Positions 21,250 through 32,985 of a stretch of DNA of 32,985 bases are shown piece by piece. Source of the DNA: Promethearchaeota archaeon. GTDB lineage: Archaea; Asgardarchaeota; Hermodarchaeia; Hermodarchaeales; Hermodarchaeaceae. Each line of letters opens with the position of its first letter. Position 1 is the first letter of the stretch. A model generated the notes under the pieces. That model saw only the letters and a list, made by a program, of their open reading frames with translations. It searched no databases and was not told the origin of the DNA. The DNA lies in NCBI GenBank assembly GCA_048939625.1, contig JBHLPH010000012.1:1-32985 (forward strand), written 5' to 3'. The translations under genes were made by a program, and so were the position numbers.

Positions 21250-22602
21250 ATGCTTTCCTATCCACGCCGTATCTCGTATGGAATCGGACGCACAGGTTCA
21301 TCATTACTATTGACCTTCGTTGATTTCGCGGGTTTGAATATCTATTACTCATTCTTTCTGTTAAATCCGTTATATGCTGGGATTGCAAGTGCCTTTGGAT
21401 TTATTGTCATAGGACTTTCCCACTGGTACCTTGGATTTCGAAGTGATAAGACTGAAAGCCGATTTGGACGCCGACGCCCGTATATAATGATCGGAGCTCC
21501 CGCACTAGCGATAACAGGATTTCTGATATTTTTCCCACAGTGGATTATCCCACCGTCCCCCGATCCAGTCAATGATCCAACTTGGCAGTTGATGACATTC
21601 GGATATTATCTTCTGACTCTCGCCCTCTTCAAATTCTTTTATGCTTTCCTTATCACCGCATATCAAGCATGGTTGCCAGAGATTGCTGGCCCTGAAGAAC
21701 GCCCGAATGTTGGTGCGATTCAGAATACTGCAAACTGGGCTGGCACAGGCATCGGGATTGTTATTGGATTTATTTCAGGAATACTCTTCGTTCCTATTAC
21801 GGGTATCCCAACCGAAATTGGGTTTATTGTGCTTATCATGATTTCTTTGCTCTGTTTTCTGTTGTTTCTCCCTGCAATCTTTTTTGTCCGTACTCGGCCC
21901 GGAATTCAACCCATTGAACGATCAATGGTTGATGAGACCAAAACAGCCTTGAAAAACCCCAACTACGTGAAATGGATTTTTGTGGTTGGCTTCTGGTCCT
22001 TAACCCTTTCCACAATCACCTCAATCATTGTTCCGATGCTACAAAATGGTTTGTTACTGGATTTCACACAACTTATCATCGCTGCAGGTGTGTTTCTAAT
22101 CGCACTACTTATCGTTCCCTTTTTCTTGGCCATACTGGTCAAGCGGTATGGCAAGAAACGTATTCTCATGATTGCACTCCTTCTCTTAGCGATAATCCTT
22201 CCTTTCACAACGATTCTAGGTCTTCCTATATTTGGACCTGTTATAATCCAACTGATCGCTTGGGGTATTCCGTTAGGTAGTTGTGTGGCTGCCCTGTATC
22301 TCATGCGCTATGTAGTCATTGCCGATATAGCTCACAAGGATGAGCTTGAGAGTGGGCAGGCTAGGGCCGGAATGTATGAGGGATTTCAGGGGGTTCCACT
22401 GAATGTCTTTCAAGCAATTGGGTCCACCTTTCTGGGATGGTTCCTCCTAGTACTACAGGTCAGTCCTGGACCGCCTCCGGTGAACTTTGGGTTCTTCTGG
22501 TGGGGACCCGTGTTTGCTATCTTCTTAGTGATTGCTGCAATTATCCTCTACTACACAAATATTGACCCTGATTTCTCAGAACTTGAACCTGTGCCTAAAT
22601 AG
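21250..22602 (+). CDS. MFS transporter, GPH/MelB-like
   Basis: About 12 TM helices; GFRSDKTESRFGRRRPY, VKRYGKKR and ARAGMYEG. Confidence 0.9.
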   Translation: MLSYPRRISYGIGRTGSSLLLTFVDFAGLNIYYSFFLLNPLYAGIASAFGFIVIGLSHWYLGFRSDKTESRFGRRRPYIMIGAPALAITGFLIFFPQWIIPPSPDPVNDPTWQLMTFGYYLLTLALFKFFYAFLITAYQAWLPEIAGPEERPNVGAIQNTANWAGTGIGIVIGFISGILFVPITGIPTEIGFIVLIMISLLCFLLFLPAIFFVRTRPGIQPIERSMVDETKTALKNPNYVKWIFVVGFWSLTLSTITSIIVPMLQNGLLLDFTQLIIAAGVFLIALLIVPFFLAILVKRYGKKRILMIALLLLAIILPFTTILGLPIFGPVIIQLIAWGIPLGSCVAALYLMRYVVIADIAHKDELESGQARAGMYEGFQGVPLNVFQAIGSTFLGWFLLVLQVSPGPPPVNFGFFWWGPVFAIFLVIAAIILYYTNIDPDFSELEPVPK

Positions 22603-22613
22603 TGACGAAGATA

Positions 22614-22640
22614 AAGGTGGTATGGATTCTATACCACCTT
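22614..22640. terminator. Hairpin between the convergent MFS and cofC genes
   Basis: aaggtggtat-N7-ataccacctt, a perfect 10-bp stem overlapping the cofC stop. Confidence 0.55.
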
Positions 22641-23309
22641 GCCACCTCTTTTTTCGTCAACAAACAGCACCTGGAAGGTCTGTGCTTCCTGGATGACTTC
22701 ATCTTCTTGAGCTAAGATTCGCAATTGGCGTATGGCAGCACCATCGTCGATGTCTAATGCGGTGGCCATGGAATGATACACGATGGGATTGAGCTCATTC
22801 TTCTGAAGTTCTTTCATGTGTTTCTGAAAGCTTTTTTCTCCAAACTGGAGTTTAAAACCGAGTGGGTATGCGAAGAATAGGACATTTGTTCCCGAGCCTT
22901 TCCAATCCTTTGCAATGACAGGACGTTTTGATTGAAGCCCAGACCAAATTAGTTCGTCGAGTGTGGCCCCAGTGAGCAAGGGTAGATCGCCTAAGATAAT
23001 AAGGGCATAACCTCGTTGTGATTGACCGAGTTGTGTAACATATTCTGTTAATTCTTCGTTCAGCCCTTGAGAGACACTTCGATGAATTTCAAAGAGTGGG
23101 TCCGAAAAAGAAGCTAAGAAATCTTTGTCCTGGGTGACAATGACAAACCGTGAGATCAACTTTGATTGCTCTACGGCTTTGATGACATCTGTTAGCATGG
23201 CTTGCACAAGTCTTTGCCGTTGTGAAGTGTCCAGGCTTCGTTCAAGTCGGTTTTTGGTTGAAGGAAGGAATCGGATGGGAATGATTGCAATGATCTCTGT
23301 CTCAGTCAA
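22629..23309 (-). CDS. cofC: 2-phospho-L-lactate/PEP guanylyltransferase (F420 biosynthesis)
   Basis: IIPIRFLPSTKNRL, AMLTDVI, GLNEEL, GDLPLL, GSGTN, FGEKSFQKH and LDID. Confidence 0.88.
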   Translation of the reverse strand: MTETEIIAIIPIRFLPSTKNRLERSLDTSQRQRLVQAMLTDVIKAVEQSKLISRFVIVTQDKDFLASFSDPLFEIHRSVSQGLNEELTEYVTQLGQSQRGYALIILGDLPLLTGATLDELIWSGLQSKRPVIAKDWKGSGTNVLFFAYPLGFKLQFGEKSFQKHMKELQKNELNPIVYHSMATALDIDDGAAIRQLRILAQEDEVIQEAQTFQVLFVDEKRGGKVV

Positions 23310-23333
23310 GCTTTCAGCCTCTCAAGTCTCAAT

Positions 23334-24056
23334 TCATACGTAGTATTCATAGGGGTCATATTCCGATCCGGGTTTCGCCCGGTTGTGTCTAATTCGGATT
23401 GTGCGATATAGAAAGGCAAAGAGGAACCCACCGAGAAATCCGAAGACATGTGCACCGTGGGCGATACCGGTGCCAAAAGCTAAGAACATCTGGAATAGTT
23501 CCAAGAAGAAGTAGATAACAATGATATTCCAAGCAGCTGTTGTCCGCCCTGAATAGCCATAAATCCCCACGGGACGTCGGGGAAGCAGATATGCGTAAGC
23601 CGCCATAATGCCGAAGATTGCTCCTGAAGCCCCGATAGTGGGAATAGATGGTCCGACTGGATCTACTGCTATTCCAATGGTGAAGACGATTAGCACATGT
23701 CCTAGACCACCAATAATGCCAGCAAAAATGTAGAGGGCAATGTAGGTAAACGGGTGCATTTCTCGTTCAACTACACTTCCAAAAATGTAGAGGAAATACA
23801 TGTTAATTAATAAGTGAAAGAAATCAGCATGGAGAAACTGACTCGTCACTAGGGTCAGGAGCGCTTGCCCGGATACAATTTTAACAGGAATGAGAGCGAA
23901 GGTATACGTGATAACTGGAAACCCGATTTGAACTTCAATAATAAAAACGAGAATAAAAATAACTGTGTTCAGAAGGATCAGGGTGTAGGTCATATAGGAG
24001 CTGATTGGACGGATGTATTCTGAATAAGTCACAACAAGGCACTTCCTAATGACCAA
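23334..24056 (-). CDS. Rhomboid intramembrane serine protease
   Basis: TSQFLHADFFHLLINM, catalytic GASG and AHGAHVFG. Start uncertain (TTG 24056 or GTG 24032). Confidence 0.93.
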   Translation of the reverse strand: MVIRKCLVVTYSEYIRPISSYMTYTLILLNTVIFILVFIIEVQIGFPVITYTFALIPVKIVSGQALLTLVTSQFLHADFFHLLINMYFLYIFGSVVEREMHPFTYIALYIFAGIIGGLGHVLIVFTIGIAVDPVGPSIPTIGASGAIFGIMAAYAYLLPRRPVGIYGYSGRTTAAWNIIVIYFFLELFQMFLAFGTGIAHGAHVFGFLGGFLFAFLYRTIRIRHNRAKPGSEYDPYEYYV

Positions 24057-24165: not shown

Positions 24166-24549
24166 ATGAGTATGGCGCTTCGGGATTTTTTGTACCCTCA
24201 ATTGGAAGTTCAGCTAATCCTGGCTAGAAGATTGGATGTCGATGAAGTACAAGCAGGCCAAGGAAGTTTATCTAAAAACTATCTAGCCGTCGCTGCTAAA
24301 ATTTCGTTAGCTACTCGAGATGCGCAGCGATTAGGATTAAAGGAAGCCAGTCACGTTGAAGTTAAATCGAAAATCGGTCGGGTGATTGTTGAGGCTAGAA
24401 TAGTTGAAAATCAACCAGAGGGTTTAGTGGTCATGCAGCCCAGTCCCTGGGCTTTTGCAGTCATTAATGACATGATTCACAGCCAAGGAACAAAAGTTAC
24501 AATCAAGGCTAGCGATGAGTCTGTAACTACTATTGAATCACTTCCCTAA
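24166..24549 (+). CDS. FwdD/FmdD-like molybdopterin-dinucleotide-binding domain protein, divergent
   Basis: DAQRLGLKEASHVEVKSKIGRVIV...PEGLVVMQPSPWA matches the FwdD fold, but the TGR and PWAN motifs are altered. Confidence 0.75.
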   Translation: MSMALRDFLYPQLEVQLILARRLDVDEVQAGQGSLSKNYLAVAAKISLATRDAQRLGLKEASHVEVKSKIGRVIVEARIVENQPEGLVVMQPSPWAFAVINDMIHSQGTKVTIKASDESVTTIESLP

Positions 24550-24577
24550 ATTCTGTCTGCTGCGTCATAACCAGAAT

Positions 24578-26065
24578 CTAGGATTTCTTCTTAGGCTTTT
24601 GTTTCGTTGTAGATGGTCGATTTGTCCCAGAAATTGGTTTCTTGGTTTTTGAAGCGGTATTTTTTACTTCTGTACATAAAGGGTCGATTCGGCCACGTTC
24701 AAAGAGTAACCGGAGTCGCCAATTCTCTCGAATCACATCTTGGAGTTTCTGTATTCGTTCTTGGGCTTTCTGTCGACTGACCTTATCCTCAGACCATTGC
24801 TCTGATTTCGTTTGAATAGTCGATCTTTGTTCAGTGGGAGGTACCTTGATGACTCGCTCGTAGATTTCTTTCAGAGGAGCTTGTCGTCCGATCAGATGAT
24901 CATAAAATACTCGCGCCCTAGCTCGTTCCCAATCCCGGGCCTTTTCAATTTGAGATAGATGATAACTCTCCCTGGATACCTTCAAGACCGATTCAGGGCA
25001 GGCATTTTCACAGGCGCCACAGAAGACGCAGATATCCTTGTTGATAGCGATCTTGTCTTTATCACCAGTCGGGTAAATTGCCTTGGTGGGACAAATATTG
25101 AAGCAGTTTACACACCCAGTGGGATCGCATTTTTCGAGATTTTCGATTTCAATTTCACCTGTGAGTGGTAGAGAAACGTCAAGGGCTTCATAAGGGCACT
25201 TCTCAGCGCAGAGTGTGCAATCAACACACAATCCATCATCAATGGTCATTGAGCCTTCAACGATTGGGTCTTTGATAGTTCGCTTGGGGGCAGAGTCACA
25301 TGTGACTTTCACTGCATCAGAGGGACAGATTTTCTCACAGAGTCCACAATAATCACATTGCTTTGTATCGACCCTAATACCCACAGCTGGCAGAAAATCT
25401 GGAGGCTTTGGTTTTTCCTCTGACCAATAAATCGTGATGCATTCAGGGCAGAGTAATTCACAAAGTCCACACCAAGTACATTTGTCTTCATCAATTGCAA
25501 TGGTTCCTTTTGCGTCTGGCTTTCCCCCATCGACGCGCTGAGCCGCTTTAGGGTCTTTATAAGTTACAAGTTCGAGTTTTGACGTAACCTTGAGGTCTAC
25601 AGTTATTGCATCGCGAGGACAGATTTTTGCACATAGTAGACAAGGTGCACATTTTTCGTCATCGAGTTCATGCTTTCCTTTTAATCGAGAGTATTGTTTG
25701 TCTGCCGGAATATCATCAAACCGAGCTTCTATCGCATTGAAGAGACAAGCTGAGTCACAGAGCCCACAAAATGTACATTTATCTTCATCAATAAGAATTA
25801 GCGGTGCACCTTCTAGACGTCCTGCTGCGATTTCTTGAACTGGTCCTAACGTGATGGCATCCCAAGGACAGGGGAGACAAAGACTGCATCCCACGCAGCG
25901 AGAAAGATCATATTTGAGATTCTTGTTGAGTAAGGAAGTCTTCCAGTTGTACTGAATATTAGTGTCATCCAGTACTTCACTGGTGACTTTAGGGCGCTCA
26001 CCAACAGTGATACGGTCACGTTGAGCTTTAGTCATATCGTAGTCCCTTGGAAATAATTCTGCCAA
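24578..26065 (-). CDS. fwdF: Polyferredoxin, FwdF/FmdF-like (eight 4Fe-4S motifs)
   Basis: Eight CxxCxxCxxxC-type motifs; AITLGPVQEIAAGRLEGAPLILIDEDKCTFCGLC is FwdF-typical. Confidence 0.85.
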   Translation of the reverse strand: MAELFPRDYDMTKAQRDRITVGERPKVTSEVLDDTNIQYNWKTSLLNKNLKYDLSRCVGCSLCLPCPWDAITLGPVQEIAAGRLEGAPLILIDEDKCTFCGLCDSACLFNAIEARFDDIPADKQYSRLKGKHELDDEKCAPCLLCAKICPRDAITVDLKVTSKLELVTYKDPKAAQRVDGGKPDAKGTIAIDEDKCTWCGLCELLCPECITIYWSEEKPKPPDFLPAVGIRVDTKQCDYCGLCEKICPSDAVKVTCDSAPKRTIKDPIVEGSMTIDDGLCVDCTLCAEKCPYEALDVSLPLTGEIEIENLEKCDPTGCVNCFNICPTKAIYPTGDKDKIAINKDICVFCGACENACPESVLKVSRESYHLSQIEKARDWERARARVFYDHLIGRQAPLKEIYERVIKVPPTEQRSTIQTKSEQWSEDKVSRQKAQERIQKLQDVIRENWRLRLLFERGRIDPLCTEVKNTASKTKKPISGTNRPSTTKQKPKKKS

Positions 26066-26300
26066 GCTAGCTTTCCGAATCTTCGCCTATAACGCTTGTT
26101 GCCGTCCTAGTTACAGGCTTTAATTCGCTTTCGATATTCTCTGCGACTCAGAAAATAAGCACGTGTTACTACAAAACTGATAAAACTATATTCGGAACTA
26201 ATTCCTTTATGCGGGGGAACTGACACGATCCTCTAAGAGTATTCTGGCTAGTAATCGTGTCGCGATCGATAAAAATCGTTAGCGTTCTAGAATTTTATGC

Positions 26301-28004
26301 TTAAGGCTTCGATGACCGTGCGTTTGAGTAATCAGGAAAATGCAGCCCACACCGTGGGCAGAATTGGCGCTTTGCGAGCCAGTCAGTCATATGCTTATAA
26401 TGCGCTAACGCACCACAACCGGGGCAGAAGGCGATTGGAGTATCTGGAGAAAGCACCTCATCACAGAAAATACAGCGATGAAGAAGGGTAGAGCACAGTG
26501 AACATTGGCTGTCTGATTTCAAACATGTTGCACTACATTTCGGACATTGTGTTAATCCAGTAAGTACTGAGGTTAAATCCTCAATCATTCGAGGAGAGAG
26601 ATAAGTCTTCAGCACAGCCTGCTTTGTAGGCTGTGCCCAAGGATCTGAGATTTCTTTTCGACTTTGTCGGAGTAGCAAATAAGAACCTAACACCATAATG
26701 ATTGATAATCCTGTCCCCAAGAAGATTAGGAACATGTTGGGTGGGCCATATGTTCGCGTATCTTCTGGTAGAATTAGTTCTGGATTATCAGGAATACGAA
26801 GTGCCCAGGCTACCGAATGGTATTCTGCAAGGCTTTCACTTCGACCAGCGATTATAAAGTCCCCTTGAGAGGTCTGCAGTATCGAATATCCTTGATCGTC
26901 TTCTGTACCTCCATAGTTTTTGCTTCTGAGAAATTCACCTTCTCGTGTTAAGCGGACTAACCAAAGGTTGTCGAAGTGGTCGTTTCCTTCCCATTCGACC
27001 GTTCTTCCAGCGATGCCCAGACTGCCATCAGCAAGTTCAGTAATCGCATAAGCTGCATCAGAAGATTGCTCACCAAATAGCGTAGTCCATTGAAGGGTCC
27101 CGTTACTATGATATGAGATAGCAAATCCATCTGATACTAGATTTGAAGTCTTTTCAGTCTCGCCAACAGTAACTAAATTTCCGCTTCTGGTTTCAATAAC
27201 ATCTGAGCAGACATCTGACCATAGACTACCAAATGTCTTATTCCATAGTGCACCCCCCGTGGGTGAAGTGACAAGTAACCATGCATCCTCGTTGCCATGT
27301 CCGTAGCTCTCTGTTGAGCCCCCTAATACGAAATTACCCGACCTTGATTCTACTAATGAAGTACAAACTTCATCATCCATTCCCCCATACTCCTGACTCC
27401 AGAGCATATTTCCACTCTCGTCTGTTCGAACTAGCCATGATTGGGAGTTGGTATGATTTTCATTCATCACAGAACCTGCAAAAGCAAATCCTCCCGATTG
27501 ACATTCAACCAAGGATAGCCCCTGATCGAAATTCTGAGACCCACCAAATGTTTGATGCCAAGAAATAGTTCCGGATTCGTCTAAACGGATAAGAAGAGCG
27601 TCCCGATGATTGTCTGGGATATACCCAATTACTGCAAACCCCCCAGCTTCGCATTCGATGATTTCCCGTCCTACTTGAGCTGAAAAAGCTTCAAAGGCTT
27701 GGTGCCAAAGAAGGCGTCCATTTTCTGCAATTCTAACAATTGCTAGGGCTTGTTTCTCTCGATAGTGGATAAACCCTGTGGCAACATATCCTCCCGCCTT
27801 GCAAGAGATAATCGAGTAAAAGGCGTTATAACCAGCCCAAGAACCATGTGTCAGACTCCAAAGTTGATCTGTATTTACACGAGCATAATTTGGAGCTGTA
27901 TAATTTGCAGTATCAAGAGTTAATCCAAAGCCAATCCCTGTAATTATACTTGAAATTAGAATGCAAATGCAAAATAGTCTGCATTTCCTCAGCAAGCAGT
28001 CCAA
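26301..28004 (-). CDS. Single-pass membrane protein: signal peptide, beta-propeller ectodomain, TM helix, cytoplasmic Zn finger plus RING-like domain
   Basis: About 7 repeats of type WLVRTDESGNMLWSQEYGG; TM MFLIFLGTGLSIIMVLGSYLLL followed by RQSRK; CPKC-x10-CSLC-x6-CIFC-x12-CPGC-x4-H-x2-H-x3-W-x6-CPRC. Confidence 0.85.
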   Translation of the reverse strand: MDCLLRKCRLFCICILISSIITGIGFGLTLDTANYTAPNYARVNTDQLWSLTHGSWAGYNAFYSIISCKAGGYVATGFIHYREKQALAIVRIAENGRLLWHQAFEAFSAQVGREIIECEAGGFAVIGYIPDNHRDALLIRLDESGTISWHQTFGGSQNFDQGLSLVECQSGGFAFAGSVMNENHTNSQSWLVRTDESGNMLWSQEYGGMDDEVCTSLVESRSGNFVLGGSTESYGHGNEDAWLLVTSPTGGALWNKTFGSLWSDVCSDVIETRSGNLVTVGETEKTSNLVSDGFAISYHSNGTLQWTTLFGEQSSDAAYAITELADGSLGIAGRTVEWEGNDHFDNLWLVRLTREGEFLRSKNYGGTEDDQGYSILQTSQGDFIIAGRSESLAEYHSVAWALRIPDNPELILPEDTRTYGPPNMFLIFLGTGLSIIMVLGSYLLLRQSRKEISDPWAQPTKQAVLKTYLSPRMIEDLTSVLTGLTQCPKCSATCLKSDSQCSLCSTLLHRCIFCDEVLSPDTPIAFCPGCGALAHYKHMTDWLAKRQFCPRCGLHFPDYSNARSSKP

Positions 28005-28072
28005 CCTTCTTGGTCCTCTGGACTTATCAAACAGGAACCTGGCTTAAAACTCTGATGAAAGCAACAAATGAG

Positions 28073-30523
28073 TTAGCGACGTTTTGTCGTAACAGTCAGT
28101 TCAGAACCAAGGGGACCCATATCAATGACATTTTCAACAAAGTCTCGTACTATCTCAGCAAGTCGAGCTCCCTCTGAGGCAGAGATACTTTCGAAAATGA
28201 TGCGATCTGGATTTAGACCCATCTCTTCTAATAACGGTAGCATCTTTTCCACACGTTCTTTTGCCTTGCCCATTCCAGTCCGATAATGGCAATCAGTTTC
28301 ATGACATCCAATAATCGCAACACCATCAGCACCCTGGCTAAAGGCTTCAAGGATGAGTAAGGGATCCAGTCGACTCGTACAAGGAACTCGAATTGGAATC
28401 ATCTGTGGAGGATACCGTAATCGATTCACTCCTGCATAATCTGCCGCTGCATAAGCACACCAATTACAAAGAAACCCAATTATGACAGGGGAAAGTGGAT
28501 TCTCTTGGCAAGCGGTATCAACAGCTGAAAGGAGTTGTTGCCGAGTGAATCCAGGTAAATCAAGTGCTGCTGTTGGACAGGATGCCACACAGGCACCACA
28601 ACCCGTGCAGGCAAGTTCATCGATTTGGGGGTACTTTGACCCTTCAAACGAGATTGCGTTAGCATCACAGGTTTTTTCACATAATCGACAACTCTCACAC
28701 AATGCTTCATTTACAACAGGAGCATAGACCTCTAAATCGATTTTACGTCGATGTAACAGAGAAGATACTTGAGCTGCTGCTAAACCTGCATGAGCAACTG
28801 TGTCTGCGATATCCTTGGGACCTTGAGAAGTACCAGCAAGAAAAATACCAGCCGAGTAGGTTCCTGTTGGATCCAGTTTTGGATGTTTCTCCAAGAAGAA
28901 GTTATTCTCATCTAAGGGAATATTGAGTTTCAATGCAAGCTCGAGATTCGATGGAGCAGGATCTACGCCAACACTCAACACTACAAGATCTGCTGGAAAC
29001 TCAATGGGTTCACAAAGTTCAGTATCTTCTGCGCGGATAAGCAGTTTCTTTGTCTTAGGATCTTCTTCGATTTCAGCAACGCGACCTCGGATAAACGTGA
29101 TACCATGCTCTCTGCTAGCCCGTTCGTATAATTCTTCGAAACCTTTACCGAAGGTTCGCATGTCTGTATAGAAGATGTATACATCAGTTTCCGGTTGGGC
29201 TATACGTAGTTGAACGGCTTCCTTGATAGCGTATGTACAACAGATGCGACTACAATAGGGTCGATTTATCCTAATATCGCGGCTGCCTACACATTGGACA
29301 AACGCAACCCGTTTCGGAGCGTCTCCTGATGAGGGCTGTATAACCAAACCATGCGATGGACCCGAAGGATCCAGTAGCCGTTCCAGCTCTGGCGCAGTAA
29401 TAACATCAGTATATCGTTCGTACCCGTATTCTGTAAGATTTTGTGGATTAAAAGGTACAAAGCCGGTGGCAACCACTATCGCTCCAACTTTGAAGGTATG
29501 GTCTTGTTCGGTTTCTTCAAAGCGGATTGATTCTTTCTCACATACACCAACACAGGATTGGCAACCAATACAAGCATCCATATCAATGTATGGAGCAAGG
29601 GGCACTGAGCTCGGATAAGGGCGAATAATTGCGTGCTGAGATCCCAGCCCATAATTATATTCGTTGGGTTCTTCTATAGGACAAATCTCAAGGCATTTGT
29701 TACATCCGTTACAAGTCTCAAGGTCGACGTAGCGGGGTTCCTGATGAATCTTCACCTGATAGGCACCGGGTGTTCCCTGGACCTCGGTGACCTCACTTAG
29801 GGTTAGAATCTTGATTTTTGGATGAGTGTTTACCTGTGTCATCAACGGACCTAGGATACATAAACTACAATCGAGACTCGGGAAGAGTTTATCCCATTTT
29901 GCCATATGACCCCCAAGAAATCCACTTCTTTCTACAAGAATGACTTCGTATCCAGAATTCGCAAGTTGTAGTGAAGCTGTGATCCCAGCAGGTCCTCCGC
30001 CAATAACAAGAACTCGTCTTGTTATCGGTACACTTATTGAATTAATGCTGAGTCCAGCTTGTGCCATTTTTAAGGCTGCATCAATCATGAGTCGAGCTTT
30101 TGCGGTTGCTGCTTCGGGGTTATCCCAATGGACCCAACTGCATTGTTCACGTATATTCGCAATGGCGAGATGCCCTCGATTCAGTCCTGCTTCTTCAACA
30201 GTTTGACTCATTAATTCTCCGTGTAGTCGTGGTGAACAGGCAGCAACCACAACATTGGCAACCTTTTCCTTTCGGATGGTTTCCCGAATCAGATTTAGCC
30301 CTTGTTCAACACAAAAATGTGCATCATCAACTACGATAAGGTGTGATTGTTTCTTATAATGCTGAACGAGGTCTTCAACATTCACTATACTGGCAATATT
30401 TGACCCACACTGACAAAGAAATAATGCTGTTTTTGGTAACGCTTTTGATTTGGTTTTGCGGCGAGTGGACTTAGACTGTGGTGTCTTGAGCTTGGTTTTT
30501 TTAGATTTAGCCACAATCGTCAC
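28073..30523 (-). CDS. hdrA: Heterodisulfide reductase subunit A fused to an MvhD (hydrogenase delta, 2Fe-2S) domain
   Basis: CQCGSNIA, ACSPRLH, NIREQCSWVH, GGGPAG, FPSLDCSLCIL, QCVGSRD, YCSRICC, GPKDIADT and ferredoxin motifs; MvhD motifs FLCNWCAY, VPCTSR and GCHETDCHY. Confidence 0.95.
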   Translation of the reverse strand: MTIVAKSKKTKLKTPQSKSTRRKTKSKALPKTALFLCQCGSNIASIVNVEDLVQHYKKQSHLIVVDDAHFCVEQGLNLIRETIRKEKVANVVVAACSPRLHGELMSQTVEEAGLNRGHLAIANIREQCSWVHWDNPEAATAKARLMIDAALKMAQAGLSINSISVPITRRVLVIGGGPAGITASLQLANSGYEVILVERSGFLGGHMAKWDKLFPSLDCSLCILGPLMTQVNTHPKIKILTLSEVTEVQGTPGAYQVKIHQEPRYVDLETCNGCNKCLEICPIEEPNEYNYGLGSQHAIIRPYPSSVPLAPYIDMDACIGCQSCVGVCEKESIRFEETEQDHTFKVGAIVVATGFVPFNPQNLTEYGYERYTDVITAPELERLLDPSGPSHGLVIQPSSGDAPKRVAFVQCVGSRDIRINRPYCSRICCTYAIKEAVQLRIAQPETDVYIFYTDMRTFGKGFEELYERASREHGITFIRGRVAEIEEDPKTKKLLIRAEDTELCEPIEFPADLVVLSVGVDPAPSNLELALKLNIPLDENNFFLEKHPKLDPTGTYSAGIFLAGTSQGPKDIADTVAHAGLAAAQVSSLLHRRKIDLEVYAPVVNEALCESCRLCEKTCDANAISFEGSKYPQIDELACTGCGACVASCPTAALDLPGFTRQQLLSAVDTACQENPLSPVIIGFLCNWCAYAAADYAGVNRLRYPPQMIPIRVPCTSRLDPLLILEAFSQGADGVAIIGCHETDCHYRTGMGKAKERVEKMLPLLEEMGLNPDRIIFESISASEGARLAEIVRDFVENVIDMGPLGSELTVTTKRR

Positions 30524-30692
30524 CGAGTCTCTTTGACATGAGTTCAGGTACCAATATGAGTTTTAACACTTGTTACGTTACTATCTGATGATTTAATTGT
30601 TAAGGCGAATGGCAAATTAGACCTCCTGGTTGTTACCCAAGAGATAAAGGGAGAAATTAGACCAGAATACTGGTAGGCTGTGTCGTGAACTC

Positions 30693-31160
30693 ATGGTAGA
30701 TAAAAAAGTCAATCCCATGCAATTGTATAAACTCCTGCCCCAAACCAATTGCAAGAAGTGTGGTATGACCTGCATGGCTTTTGCAACGAAGCTAGCCCTC
30801 CGCGAAGTTGAACTGAAAGAATGCACACCGCTCTTTGAAGAAGAGCAGTATAAAGAGAAACTTGCCACACTCTCTGATCTCATTAGCCCTCTCTTAGAAA
30901 CTGAAGAAACAGGTTTGAAACTAGATGAGACCATATGTACAGGATGTGGCAATTGCGTTGTTGTCTGTCCAGTCGATGCATCCACAGAACCGGATACAGC
31001 TTCCGGGAAAGCTGCACGTTCAACTGACACAGTCTTCAGAGTTGAAGATGGCATCGCTAAGATTATCAACCTTGAGAAATGTCGTCGATTTCCACCCGAA
31101 CGCATGAATTGTCGTGTCTGTGAACAAGGTTGTTATGTGAAGGCTATCGAAATCTGGTAA
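30693..31160 (+). CDS. FwdG-like ferredoxin with an N-terminal Fe-S domain of the CdhE/RnfB type
   Basis: LPQTNCKKCGMTCMAFA...ECTPL; CTGCGNCVVVCPV; CRVCEQGCYVKAI; directly upstream of the fwdB-like gene. Confidence 0.8.
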   Translation: MVDKKVNPMQLYKLLPQTNCKKCGMTCMAFATKLALREVELKECTPLFEEEQYKEKLATLSDLISPLLETEETGLKLDETICTGCGNCVVVCPVDASTEPDTASGKAARSTDTVFRVEDGIAKIINLEKCRRFPPERMNCRVCEQGCYVKAIEIW

Positions 31161-31196
31161 CTATATACGTATATCAGCAGCTGAAGGGAACGAAAC

Positions 31197-32480
31197 GTGC
31201 AAGATACTGTATGTTGTGGCTGTTCAGTCGTCTGTGATGACGTGGCAGTATCAGTTAAAAAAGCCAGCTTGCAATCCTTAGGCCTCTGCAGACTCGGTCA
31301 TGAGTATTGTAGCTCGATATTCAGTAAAGCACGACTTACATATCCTTTGATGAAAACGGGTGATGGAAAACCGAAATCAACAACCATGAAGAAAGCCTTG
31401 GAGAAAGCTACAGAGCTCCTTCATGAAAGCAAAAGACCATTGTTAATCGGGTGGTCAAATAGTACAACCGAAGCGATCACCTGTGGATTGGACATCGCTC
31501 AACATAAGAGAGGAGTATTCGATAGCACCGCGAGCTTCGAATACGGGGCCCTTCTAGAATTTGGCTTGCATGGGGGTGAATCAGAAAAAACCTCATTGGA
31601 TACTGTACGGGATTTTGCCGACCACATAGTCTATTGGGGAGTCAACCCAGCAGAAAGCCACCATCGTCATGCCAGTCGATACACAGTGTTTCCCAAAGGC
31701 AAGAATATCCCAGAAGGTCGTGAAAGTCGTGTGGTATCAGTGATTGATATTCGAGATACAGAATCCATGCGATTAGCAAACCATCAACTGATTCTTTCCC
31801 CTTCCACGGGCGACGAGGAATTTCTGAATTTACTTATCGCTGAACTCGATGGAACTCGCGAACACCTACCTGATAAAATTGGAGGAGTGCCTGCTATTGA
31901 GTTTCTCAGTTTTAGTAAACAACTTCGAGAAGCAAGTGATGTAGCCTTATTTTATGGCAATGGTTTACTGCATTCACCGAACACTCGACGCATTCTACCG
32001 CTACTTGCCAAGGTGAATGGCCTTCTCAATCGAAACCAGCACCGATGCTGGACATTACCGATGATAGCATACTGCAATACGATTGGAGCGGTGAAAGCTA
32101 GTCTAAAAGTGGCGAAGATACCATTTGCCATTGATTTTCACTCAAAATCAGGAAAATCACTGCCATCGATTTTCTCTGAAATCCGGGACACTAAATTTGA
32201 TTGTGTGGTAATTGTGGGTTGGGATGCATTGAGCCTTTTACCAGGACCTATTTCCAAAGCCCTCACGAATCTTCCTATAATAGCTTTGTCGACTCATCCG
32301 ACTTTAACAACACAAAAAGCAAGCGTTGTTTTTCCAACAGCCCTAACAGGTGCAGAAGCAGCAGGCACTGTTCATCGCATGGACGGAACAACAATATCTC
32401 TTCAACCTTTCAAGGTACCACCTAAAGGTGTTCTCACAGAAGAAGCACTTTTAACGCAACTTCTTGAAAACCTCACCTAG
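31197..32480 (+). CDS. FwdB/FmdB-like subunit lacking W/Mo catalytic residues (FhcB-like)
   Basis: N-terminal CCGCSVVCDD...CRLG, GWSNSTTEA, YWGVNPAESHHRHASRY and GTVHRMDG identify the family. DSTASFEYG replaces DNTASVCHG, and PMIAYCN replaces PMRGHYN. Confidence 0.85.
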   Translation: MQDTVCCGCSVVCDDVAVSVKKASLQSLGLCRLGHEYCSSIFSKARLTYPLMKTGDGKPKSTTMKKALEKATELLHESKRPLLIGWSNSTTEAITCGLDIAQHKRGVFDSTASFEYGALLEFGLHGGESEKTSLDTVRDFADHIVYWGVNPAESHHRHASRYTVFPKGKNIPEGRESRVVSVIDIRDTESMRLANHQLILSPSTGDEEFLNLLIAELDGTREHLPDKIGGVPAIEFLSFSKQLREASDVALFYGNGLLHSPNTRRILPLLAKVNGLLNRNQHRCWTLPMIAYCNTIGAVKASLKVAKIPFAIDFHSKSGKSLPSIFSEIRDTKFDCVVIVGWDALSLLPGPISKALTNLPIIALSTHPTLTTQKASVVFPTALTGAEAAGTVHRMDGTTISLQPFKVPPKGVLTEEALLTQLLENLT

Positions 32481-32548
32481 CCGGATTTTCGATAATTGGT
32501 AAGCCTTTAAGCACCCATAAACAAGTACACGAGTAAGGGTGCGCAAAA

Positions 32549-32985
32549 ATGAAAATTGCAGTTGCTGGGAAAGGCGGAGTAGGCAAAACCCTCATCGCTG
32601 GAACTCTGGCTCGATTCCTTGGAAGAGAAAATATCAAAGTATTAGCTGTTGATGCAGATCCCACACCAACTTTAGCAACGACCCTAGGCATCCCTCAGGA
32701 GATTGCTTCAAAGATTGTACCTTTGACTGAAAACGACGAACTCGTTGAGGAACGCACGGGCATGGACAAAAAGACTTACGGTGGAATGTTTAAACTCAAT
32801 CCGCATGTCTCTGACTTGGCTGAAAAATATGGTATTGCAGGTCCTGATAACACAACCCTTCTTGTCGCAGGAACAGTTACGATAGGTGGATCAGGTTGCA
32901 TGTGCCCTGCAGGAGCTATGCTTAAGGCACTCATCCGATACCTCATTGTGGGCACTGATGAAGCCTTTGTAATGGACCTCGAAGC
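32549..32985 (+). CDS. cooC: CooC/AcsF-type nickel-insertion ATPase; 3'-truncated by the window edge
   Basis: Not in the supplied ORF list. Translates as MKIAVAGKGGVGKT (deviant Walker A), VDADP, FKLNPHVSD, GSGCMCP (Ni-binding CxC) and MDLEA. Confidence 0.9.
   Translation, partial: MKIAVAGKGGVGKTLIAGTLARFLGRENIKVLAVDADPTPTLATTLGIPQEIASKIVPLTENDELVEERTGMDKKTYGGMFKLNPHVSDLAEKYGIAGPDNTTLLVAGTVTIGGSGCMCPAGAMLKALIRYLIVGTDEAFVMDLE

Follow-up and report, generated by a model that had tools for sequence, protein, structure and literature searches.

A candidate Fwd-Hdr electron-transfer module with an apparently disabled FwdB paralog, linked to CODH/ACS genes in Asgard archaea

Background

Two steps of the Wood-Ljungdahl pathway need electrons near -500 mV. 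For the first, conversion of CO2 to formyl-methanofuran, methanogens use Hdr-Fmd supercomplexes; for the second, reduction of CO2 to CO at CO dehydrogenase/acetyl-CoA synthase (CODH/ACS), we know of no dedicated electron-delivery machine. A concrete candidate for such a machine is a gene module in a 32,985-nucleotide stretch of DNA (the window) from a Promethearchaeota archaeon of the family Hermodarchaeaceae (contig JBHLPH010000012.1, positions 1 to 32,985). It comprises an hdrA-mvhD fusion, fwdF, divergent paralogs of fwdG, fwdB and fwdD (here fwdG', fwdB' and fwdD') and the CODH maturation gene cooC; it is conserved, under selection, tied to cdh genes, and present in both Asgard archaea and Thermoproteota. 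Asgard archaea are the closest prokaryotic relatives of eukaryotes. We read it as the form that a conserved archaeal 'Fwd-Hdr' module takes in the Hermodarchaeota family, with its catalytic site lost and with a link to CODH/ACS.

Several related systems have been described. In the Hdr-Fmd supercomplexes of methanogens (7BKB, 9SW6), HdrA bifurcates an electron pair, of which the low-potential electron travels through FmdF to the FwdB/D active site (PMC13580544). The FmdF of class II methanogens, which bridges HdrA and FmdBD, is reported to have its source in Asgard/Bathyarchaeia FmdF (PMC13580544). The cultured Thermoproteota methanogen Methanonezhaarchaeum YNP3N has a 'Fwd-Hdr' cluster made up of a second FwdBD set with FwdF, FwdG and HdrABC (Sci Adv 2025, PMC12700198). 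In Methanosarcina, an hdrA-polyferredoxin operon is induced by acetate, and a fwdG2B2D2 cluster lies unlinked to it (Rohlin & Gunsalus 2010, PMC2838876); the HdrA-MvhD and polyferredoxin of this genus work with CODH/ACS-derived ferredoxin (PMC2838876; Yan et al. 2017, PMC5296606). HdrA2 of M. acetivorans, encoded in an operon with a polyferredoxin, uses F420H2 and ferredoxin (PMC5296606). ElpA, a pterin-free homolog of FdhA, is a structural subunit of an Hdr complex and sits on HdrA (PMC12350162).

The genome is a 2.3-Mb metagenome-assembled genome (88% complete, 6% contamination), and the window is the first part of its 62,356-base scaffold C29. Genes were called by open reading frame listing and by Pfam and NCBIfam profile scans. 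Every gene named in an earlier annotation of the window, made from the sequence alone (the original prediction), was recovered in its place by these means.

FwdB' and FwdD'

FwdB' can be aligned over its whole length with M. wolfeii FwdB (5T5I_B, E 2.8e-53), and three catalytic residues differ. C118-H119 of 5T5I_B is replaced by E115-Y116 (SFEYG for SVCHG), and the catalytic arginine R288 by I290 (PMIAYCN for PMRGHYN). Since the metal-ligand cysteine, the adjacent histidine and the catalytic arginine are all gone, FwdB' is predicted to be incapable of CO2 reduction; the inactive FwdB sink of the original prediction is borne out at all three positions. The same residues suggest that FwdB'D' may lack the pterin cofactor. 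The four cysteines of the [4Fe-4S] cluster (C6, C9, C13 and C31) align with those of 5T5I_B and are invariant across the clade. On the TIGR03129 profile FwdB' scores 285.4 bits, below the curated cut-off of 327.8; the genome's canonical copy on contig C15 scores 517.6.

The replacement motifs are shared by relatives. ASxEYG and PMxxYCN are kept in all of the approximately 58 protein clusters close to FwdB', and those with a named source are all labelled Asgard (Hermod-, Thor-, Hod- and Promethearchaeota). The alignment of the clade contains 81 invariant columns. An AF2 model of FwdB' has a predicted local distance difference test (pLDDT) score of 84.4 and a predicted template modelling score (pTM) of 0.85, and superimposes on 5T5I_B and 7BKB_H with template modelling (TM) scores of 0.87 and 0.92. 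Its fold matches include ElpA (8RVU_D), FhcB (6S6Y_F) and NuoG/Nqo3.

One segment of FwdB' stands out, residues 146-186 (positions 31632-31754), with the pattern WGxNPAESHHRHASR...PEGxESRxxxxxDxR; its canonical counterpart is NPxxAHPRHxxR. Cdh-linked Asgard copies and Thermoproteota module copies are 59-73% identical over this segment, against 34-39% overall. It also has the lowest AlphaFold confidence in the model (pLDDT 49-65). The segment may be a partner interface or may depend on a cofactor.

FwdD' is a more distant relative of its canonical counterpart. It matches PF01568 (1.8e-10), 8RJA_D (E 1.8e-10) and 5T5I_D (3.5e-6), and scores 41.5 bits on NF042908 versus 107.7 for the canonical FwdD of the genome. 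The gene has the same position in 10 loci of the family, and is also found in other Asgard and in Thermoproteota loci. Both halves of the inactive 'FwdBD' named in the original prediction are thus present, but as separate, unfused genes 6.6 kb apart.

Conservation of the module and its linkage to CODH/ACS genes

The module occurs in 18/18 genomes of the family to which the window's genome belongs, and FwdB' of the Glu-Tyr type is confined to that family. Sixteen contigs of the family share one order: genes for a major facilitator superfamily (MFS) transporter, CofC and a rhomboid protease come before that for FwdD', which is convergent with a set made up of FwdF, the propeller/zinc-ribbon protein (in zero to two copies) and HdrA-MvhD; FwdG', FwdB' and CooC diverge from this set, and are followed on the same contigs by ICMT, amidohydrolase and cdhABCD. 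Conservation of the cluster in related Asgard genomes, which the original prediction had put forward as a check, is therefore strong and extends to other families.

Outside the family the surroundings vary. In Asgard family f31, FwdG'-FwdB'-CooC-CdhABCDE run together in a single orientation as one block; family f5 has a rearranged order, in which cooC-cdhAB still adjoins the module. Three Thermoproteota genomes (one labelled Kor3) carry the module, two of them with cdhABCD on the opposite flank. In total, at least three Asgard families, as well as Korarchaeia-type Thermoproteota, have the module next to cooC-cdh. FwdG' and FwdB' are co-oriented with cooC and cdhABCD(E), and directly abut them in other families. 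The CODH/ACS linkage has survived at least three gene arrangements in two phyla, which argues for a functional tie to CODH/ACS; this is our main argument.

Some loci depart from this pattern. At Asgard loci L050, L054 and L057, hdrC-hdrB lies inside the module. At L055, L056 and L057 (families f13, f28 and f4) a gene for a FwdA-like amidohydrolase, 26-37% identical to the genome's FwdA, adjoins FwdD; the FwdB of these loci is nearer to canonical copies, keeps the cysteine (as Cys-His or Cys-Gln) and lacks the arginine. L055 also lacks HdrA. This variant may represent a stage between a genuine Fwd-Hdr enzyme and the disabled module.

Evolution of module FwdB copies

In a maximum-likelihood tree, a branch supported at 98/98 separates module FwdBs verified by gene context from canonical copies. 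The clade with Glu-Tyr (100/99) is sister to one of Thorarchaeota type, whose members have Gly-Leu or Gly-Ala in that position (100/100); the Cys-His copies of Thermoproteota fall outside the two. The catalytic arginine is missing in every module-associated FwdB examined. The cysteine is kept in Thermoproteota and in the modules that contain hdrC-hdrB, and is lost in the two sister clades that have no hdrCB in the cluster. Loss of the cysteine and absence of hdrCB are probably a single evolutionary event, so that their association is a pattern and not a statistic.

The ratio of non-synonymous to synonymous substitution (dN/dS) is approximately 0.13 for FwdB' and 0.12 for FwdD', versus 0.05-0.07 for HdrA, FwdF, FwdG' and CooC; these values are rough as dS is mostly saturated. 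They indicate that FwdB' and FwdD' are under purifying selection, about twice as relaxed as that on the other parts of the module. A functionless pair heading for loss could be expected to shed its catalytic residues and to diverge faster than its neighbours, as these two have done. Such decay is highly improbable here: the reading frames are intact and full length at every locus, the gene is present throughout the family, dN/dS is as low as about 0.12, the clade retains its invariant columns, FwdB' is predicted to fold confidently, and the sister clade has retained both genes.

FwdB'D' might instead still be an enzyme, either as a formate-oxidizing module that donates to HdrA via MvhD or with a new Glu115-Tyr116 site in which the glutamate is possibly a metal ligand. 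Formate oxidation has been proposed for a homologous cluster (Kohtz et al., PMC12700198). In line with an enzyme, Glu-Tyr is invariant in the clade, motifs of the dinucleotide-binding fold are kept, residues 146-186 are far more conserved across phyla than the rest of the protein, and Thermoproteota and some Asgard module copies retain Cys-His or Cys-Gln. We nevertheless judge catalysis very unlikely. All module copies lack the arginine that formate dehydrogenases and FwdB need, and in the sister clade Gly-Leu or Gly-Ala occupies the Glu-Tyr position within the same gene context, which means that the position does not call for any one residue. FwdB' and FwdD' also change at roughly double the rate of the other parts, and FwdD' scores far under canonical FwdD. 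We know of no Glu-ligated enzyme in the FwdB family.

Iron-sulfur proteins of the module

HdrA-MvhD has a complete architecture: an N-terminal cysteine cluster, a FAD domain, and inserted and C-terminal 2x[4Fe-4S] ferredoxin domains. Over residues 23-674 it matches the HdrA of 8RVU along the full length (E 4.9e-182); the motifs CxCG, CSPRLH and DCSLC are kept, and there are four CxxCxxCxxxC motifs. The fused [2Fe-2S] MvhD domain is found at residues 678-805 by comparison with 5ODC_D (E 2.4e-37) and at 681-803 by PF02662 (5.9e-47). On NF040770, the HdrA2 equivalog model, the protein scores 916.8 bits, below the cut-off of 1100; the paralog on contig C72 scores 1082.9.

FwdF has eight [4Fe-4S] cysteine motifs, the number given in the original prediction. 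Residues 28-382 align with 5T5I_F 3-343 (E 6.6e-46), and the match to 7BKB_K is similar (1.4e-43); the NF042909 score is 222.7 bits, below the cut-off of 375. A charged C-terminal tail of about 110 residues, rich in Lys, Arg and Glu (residues ~383-495; positions 24578-24940), is absent from solved FwdF/FmdF chains (349-388 residues) and is kept to approximately residue 476 in other Asgard families.

FwdG' consists of two Fe-S domains. Residues 74-131 are a FwdG-type 2x[4Fe-4S] ferredoxin (E 1.6e-11 to 5T5I_G). The N-terminal domain is of the type found in the corrinoid iron-sulfur protein (CFeSP), CdhE and RnfB (PF04060, 4.2e-11; NF003195, positions 1-65) and is an addition to the classical 82-residue FwdG. 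Among solved structures, the N-terminal 73 residues match only the N-terminal [4Fe-4S] domain of the CFeSP large subunit; residues 8-60 align with CFeSP large subunits at E 3e-7 with all four cysteines in register, as expected from the CdhE-like domain that had been noticed on FwdG. No match was found between these 73 residues and the long FmdG of M. hungatei.

Since the module HdrA scores best to the HdrA2 model, the genes could encode a stand-alone, ferredoxin-linked oxidoreductase or bifurcase similar to HdrA2B2C2, with F420H2 or another compound as donor and HdrBC or another acceptor in trans; it would have no special tie to CODH/ACS, and the position next to cdh would be inherited. The use of F420H2 and ferredoxin by M. 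acetivorans HdrA2, again with a polyferredoxin gene in the operon (PMC5296606), the two hdrBC sets in the genome, the presence of hdrCB inside some modules, and a cofC gene 850 bp upstream of fwdD' that is syntenic in the family are consistent with this. We regard it as quite unlikely. Linkage to cooC-cdh in at least three arrangements and two phyla exceeds what is expected of frozen gene order, and FwdG'-FwdB' lies upstream of cooC-cdh in the same orientation and with short gaps.

Gene layout, intergenic region and scaffold gap

The module and its intergenic region occupy the last part of the window (Table 1).

Table 1. Features of the Fwd-Hdr module in the window
Feature	Position	Strand	Description
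FwdD-like protein (FwdD')	24166-24549	+	127 aa, no Cys, PF01568; convergent with fwdF
FwdF-like polyferredoxin	24578-26065	-	495 aa, eight [4Fe-4S] Cys motifs
Beta-propeller/zinc-ribbon protein	26301-28004	-	567 aa, weak Pfam DZR and SBBP-repeat matches
HdrA-MvhD fusion	28073-30523	-	816 aa
Divergent hdrA/fwdG' intergenic region	30524-30692		169 bp, three conserved blocks
FwdG-like Fe-S protein (FwdG')	30693-31160	+	155 aa, 12 Cys, approximately three [4Fe-4S] clusters
FwdB paralog (FwdB')	31197-32480	+	427 aa, TIGR03129 below cut-off
cooC, 5' part	32549-32985	+	145 codons; CODH Ni-insertion ATPase; P-loop, GCMC

The divergent intergenic region has a mean column identity of 74% over 12 loci of the family. 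Its conserved blocks are TTTAACACTTGTTACGTTACTATC (30562-30585), which contains the palindrome AACA-N2-TGTT, TTTAATTGTTAAGGC (30592-30606) and GTTGTTACCCAAGAGATAAAGG (30629-30650). A genome-wide search at up to two mismatches found no second copy of the two long blocks; the short block is AT-rich. A copy of the third block with three mismatches lies upstream of hdrA on contig C42 (46030-46051). The 169-bp region is probably a shared promoter or regulator region for both divergent operons, and its conservation implies that the two are co-regulated.

The gene for the propeller/zinc-ribbon protein, between hdrA and fwdF, is present in zero, one or two copies in relatives (27-49% identity). It is missing at L031, L032, L034 and all loci outside the family, and is doubled at L022-L024 and L028. 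It looks like a non-core insertion into the hdrA-fwdF operon. At the other end of the module, the genes for the MFS transporter, CofC and the rhomboid protease (21250-24056) lie directly upstream of fwdD' and are syntenic family-wide. CofC is a guanylyltransferase of coenzyme F420 biosynthesis; its gene, at the 850-bp distance given above, is a faint hint that F420 is relevant.

The window ends at 32985 because a scaffold gap of 100 N (32986-33085 of C29) interrupts cooC. The in-window part encodes the P-loop GKGGVGKT and the GCMC metal motif. Full-length CooC orthologs have 263-269 residues, and one of them (L020) matches Carboxydothermus CooC1 (3KJE) at E 1.4e-39. In public contigs the left edge of the gap continues the cooC frame as AGIENLGRGT and the right edge enters an ICMT-like gene; the gap is unbridged. 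Its true length must be several hundred bases, which hold the rest of cooC and the 5' half of the ICMT-like gene. A frameshift in cooC was ruled out, as the break is the scaffold gap.

Past the gap, the scaffold contains two genes for ICMT-like membrane methyltransferases and an amidohydrolase gene (33096-35372), then cdhA (1129.7 bits), cdhB, cdhC and cdhD. Inspection downstream of cooC, as had been suggested, thus places cdhA-B-C-D approximately 2.3 kb beyond the point where the cooC reading frame ends. Only in this family do the ICMT-like and amidohydrolase genes part cooC from cdhA, which are direct neighbours in other Asgard families. The amidohydrolase was considered as a paralog of FwdA and rejected, as it has only generic amidohydrolase matches.

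Rest of the genome

A canonical fwdB, with Cys-His and arginine intact, and a canonical fwdD are located on contig C15 with a pyrophosphatase gene between them; fwdA and ftr-fwdC-mch are on C8. The FwdF of the module is the only FwdF-like protein encoded in the genome. There are five HdrA paralogs (one each on C29, C72 and C42, and two on C4) and two clusters of the hdrA-hdrC-hdrB type, on C72 and C42. The two paralogs on C4 are in tandem at a contig end (3-4224), and one is fused to MvhD. Large subunits of NiFe hydrogenases are encoded on C58, C34 and C7. No hdrB/C, fwdA/C or NiFe hydrogenase gene was found on C29. The absence of hdrBC, fwdA/C and mvhAG reported in the original prediction thus holds for the contig; it is local, with two hdrABC sets elsewhere. 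That prediction was to be given up if a canonical fwdBD elsewhere partnered this FwdF/G and the cluster was also not conserved. Canonical fwdB and fwdD are indeed present elsewhere, but the cluster is conserved, and the two do not hold together.

Canonical FwdB and a module copy are both present in each genome tested, namely the window's genome, two further Asgard genomes, three Thermoproteota genomes and three more reasonably complete f31 genomes. Only incomplete genomes (74-75% complete) have the module and no canonical FwdB.

These distributions bear on coupling of Hdr and Fwd in trans, in which HdrA-MvhD and FwdF (with FwdG') would feed canonical FwdABCD, as FmdF does in Fdh-Hdr-Fmd. FwdB'/D' would then be accessory, for example as an alternative plug or with a part in assembly or regulation, and the adjacency to cdh would reflect co-regulation. 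The single FwdF-like gene, the scattering of canonical fwdA, fwdB, fwdC and fwdD with no Fe-S partners of their own, and the presence of canonical FwdB in every adequately complete genome with the module all fit this arrangement. So do the reported origin of class II methanogen FmdF from Asgard/Bathyarchaeia FmdF (PMC13580544) and the FwdA-like gene and near-canonical FwdB in the modules at L055-L057. Left unexplained are the full-length FwdB' and FwdD' under purifying selection in 18/18 genomes, and the co-oriented FwdG'-FwdB' directly upstream of cooC-cdh in several lineages; moreover, the module is never beside canonical fwd genes in the loci examined. Coupling in trans is the main alternative to the reading favoured here, though an unlikely one.

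Proposed function

We tentatively favour an electron-transfer complex of HdrA, FwdF, FwdG' and FwdB'D', in which FwdB'D' is a non-catalytic adaptor and CODH/ACS is the partner. HdrA-MvhD, the eight-cluster FwdF, FwdG' with its three clusters, and FwdB'/FwdD' would form one soluble complex. FwdB'/FwdD' would most likely act as an adaptor or scaffold that carries a [4Fe-4S] cluster. Splitting or merging of electrons would take place at the flavin of HdrA, and the low-potential ones would pass through the Fe-S chain to or from CODH/ACS; their direction would be either toward CO2 reduction or away from CO or acetyl-CoA oxidation. The latter direction has been proposed for the metabolism of Hermodarchaeota (PMC8163825). 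HdrBC, as the high-potential partner, and the electron donor would be supplied in trans. CODH/ACS is taken as the likeliest partner because of the conserved linkage and the CFeSP-type domain on FwdG'.

A bolder version of this complex is doubtful. It holds that non-methanogenic Asgard and TACK archaea have a second 'CO2-fixing supercomplex', in which a flavin bifurcation unit built on HdrA is wired firmly to CODH/ACS by FwdF, the CFeSP-like FwdG' and a FwdB'D' adaptor that has no cofactor.

Several observations weigh against the favoured complex. The module could be linked to cdh because Wood-Ljungdahl genes are regulated together, and not because of contact; contact or electron exchange with CODH/ACS is suggested by synteny only. 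The original prediction's suggestion that the Fe-S wire may feed CODH/ACS has the same synteny as its support, and was overstated. No RNA run was listed as containing the locus, which speaks neither for nor against its expression. In the window's genome the ICMT-like and amidohydrolase genes part cooC from cdhA, and cdhE is elsewhere (C58:28981-30360). The cooC-to-cdh link in this genome also crosses the unbridged scaffold gap, and therefore rests on scaffolding and on synteny in relatives. No cdh gene is within reach at L051 (9.7 kb searched, one flank), L036 or L055-L057. FwdB' retains several motifs of the molybdopterin guanine dinucleotide (MGD) family, such as GxNP and VIDIR (for VVDPR), in addition to the unusually conserved segment 146-186. 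Finally, service to canonical Fwd is equally possible on these data, because canonical FwdB co-occurs with the module in reasonably complete genomes and FwdF is single in the genome.

If the favoured complex exists, it would be a further example of an enzyme subunit put to new use as a scaffold for electron transfer. The module bears on the ferredoxin balance of its uncultured hosts in acetogenesis or acetyl-CoA oxidation. If the link to cdh is one of co-regulation only, FwdB' still represents a well-delimited family of FwdB paralogs, now mislabelled as formylmethanofuran dehydrogenase subunit B.

Comparison with known systems

The module shares HdrA, MvhD, FwdF, FwdG, FwdB and FwdD with the Hdr-Fmd/Fwd complexes of methanogens (7BKB of M. 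hungatei; 9SW6 and 8RVU of M. marburgensis), with strong sequence and fold matches. It would also share the principle by which bifurcated electrons are wired directly into a low-potential site of CO2 reduction. In contrast to these complexes, the module cluster contains no FwdA/C, no HdrBC and no donor (Mvh, Fdh or Elp), and its FwdB site is predicted to be disabled. HdrA and MvhD form a fusion, FwdG carries a CFeSP-type domain in addition, and CODH/ACS genes are the neighbours.

Similarity to Methanosarcina lies in the HdrA-MvhD fusion with an adjoining polyferredoxin and in the FwdG-B-D set with no FwdA/C. The Methanosarcinaceae FwdB cluster P0105 also lacks the arginine, as module FwdBs do. 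Unlike FwdB', P0105 keeps the cysteine (as Cys-Gln) and falls on the canonical side of the 98/98 branch. The two gene sets of Methanosarcina lie apart, and neither PMC2838876 nor PMC5296606 describes a linkage to cdh.

In YNP3N, as in the window's genome, a second FwdB/FwdD set is located apart from the catalytic FwdABCD and together with FwdF, FwdG and HdrA. Related Asgard loci (L050, L054 and L057) contain hdrC-hdrB as YNP3N does, and Thermoproteota module FwdBs belong to the same clade as FwdB'. The comparison with YNP3N is by its published description. On that basis, the cluster in the window differs in having no hdrBC, a non-methanogen host and a tie to cooC-cdh. FwdB' has in addition lost Cys-His and the arginine, and the formate oxidation proposed for YNP3N therefore cannot apply to it. 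The cluster type as such is known (PMC12700198, PMC2838876), so that the 'undescribed variant' of the original prediction narrows to the disabled, CODH-linked form; searches of the open-access literature on Asgard archaea, Korarchaeia and Hermodarchaeota found no description of such a form.

The closest precedents for FwdB' itself are ElpA, FhcB and NuoG/Nqo3, in each of which a fold of the formate dehydrogenase family, with no active site, is kept in a redox or C1 complex. With approximately 340-355 residues, ElpA and FhcB are shortened forms. FwdB' is full length and has many family motifs, and its cofactor is predicted, from residue losses, to be absent. FwdB'D' is read as a non-catalytic adaptor because its terminal site appears disabled and the subunit is nevertheless kept, as in ElpA.

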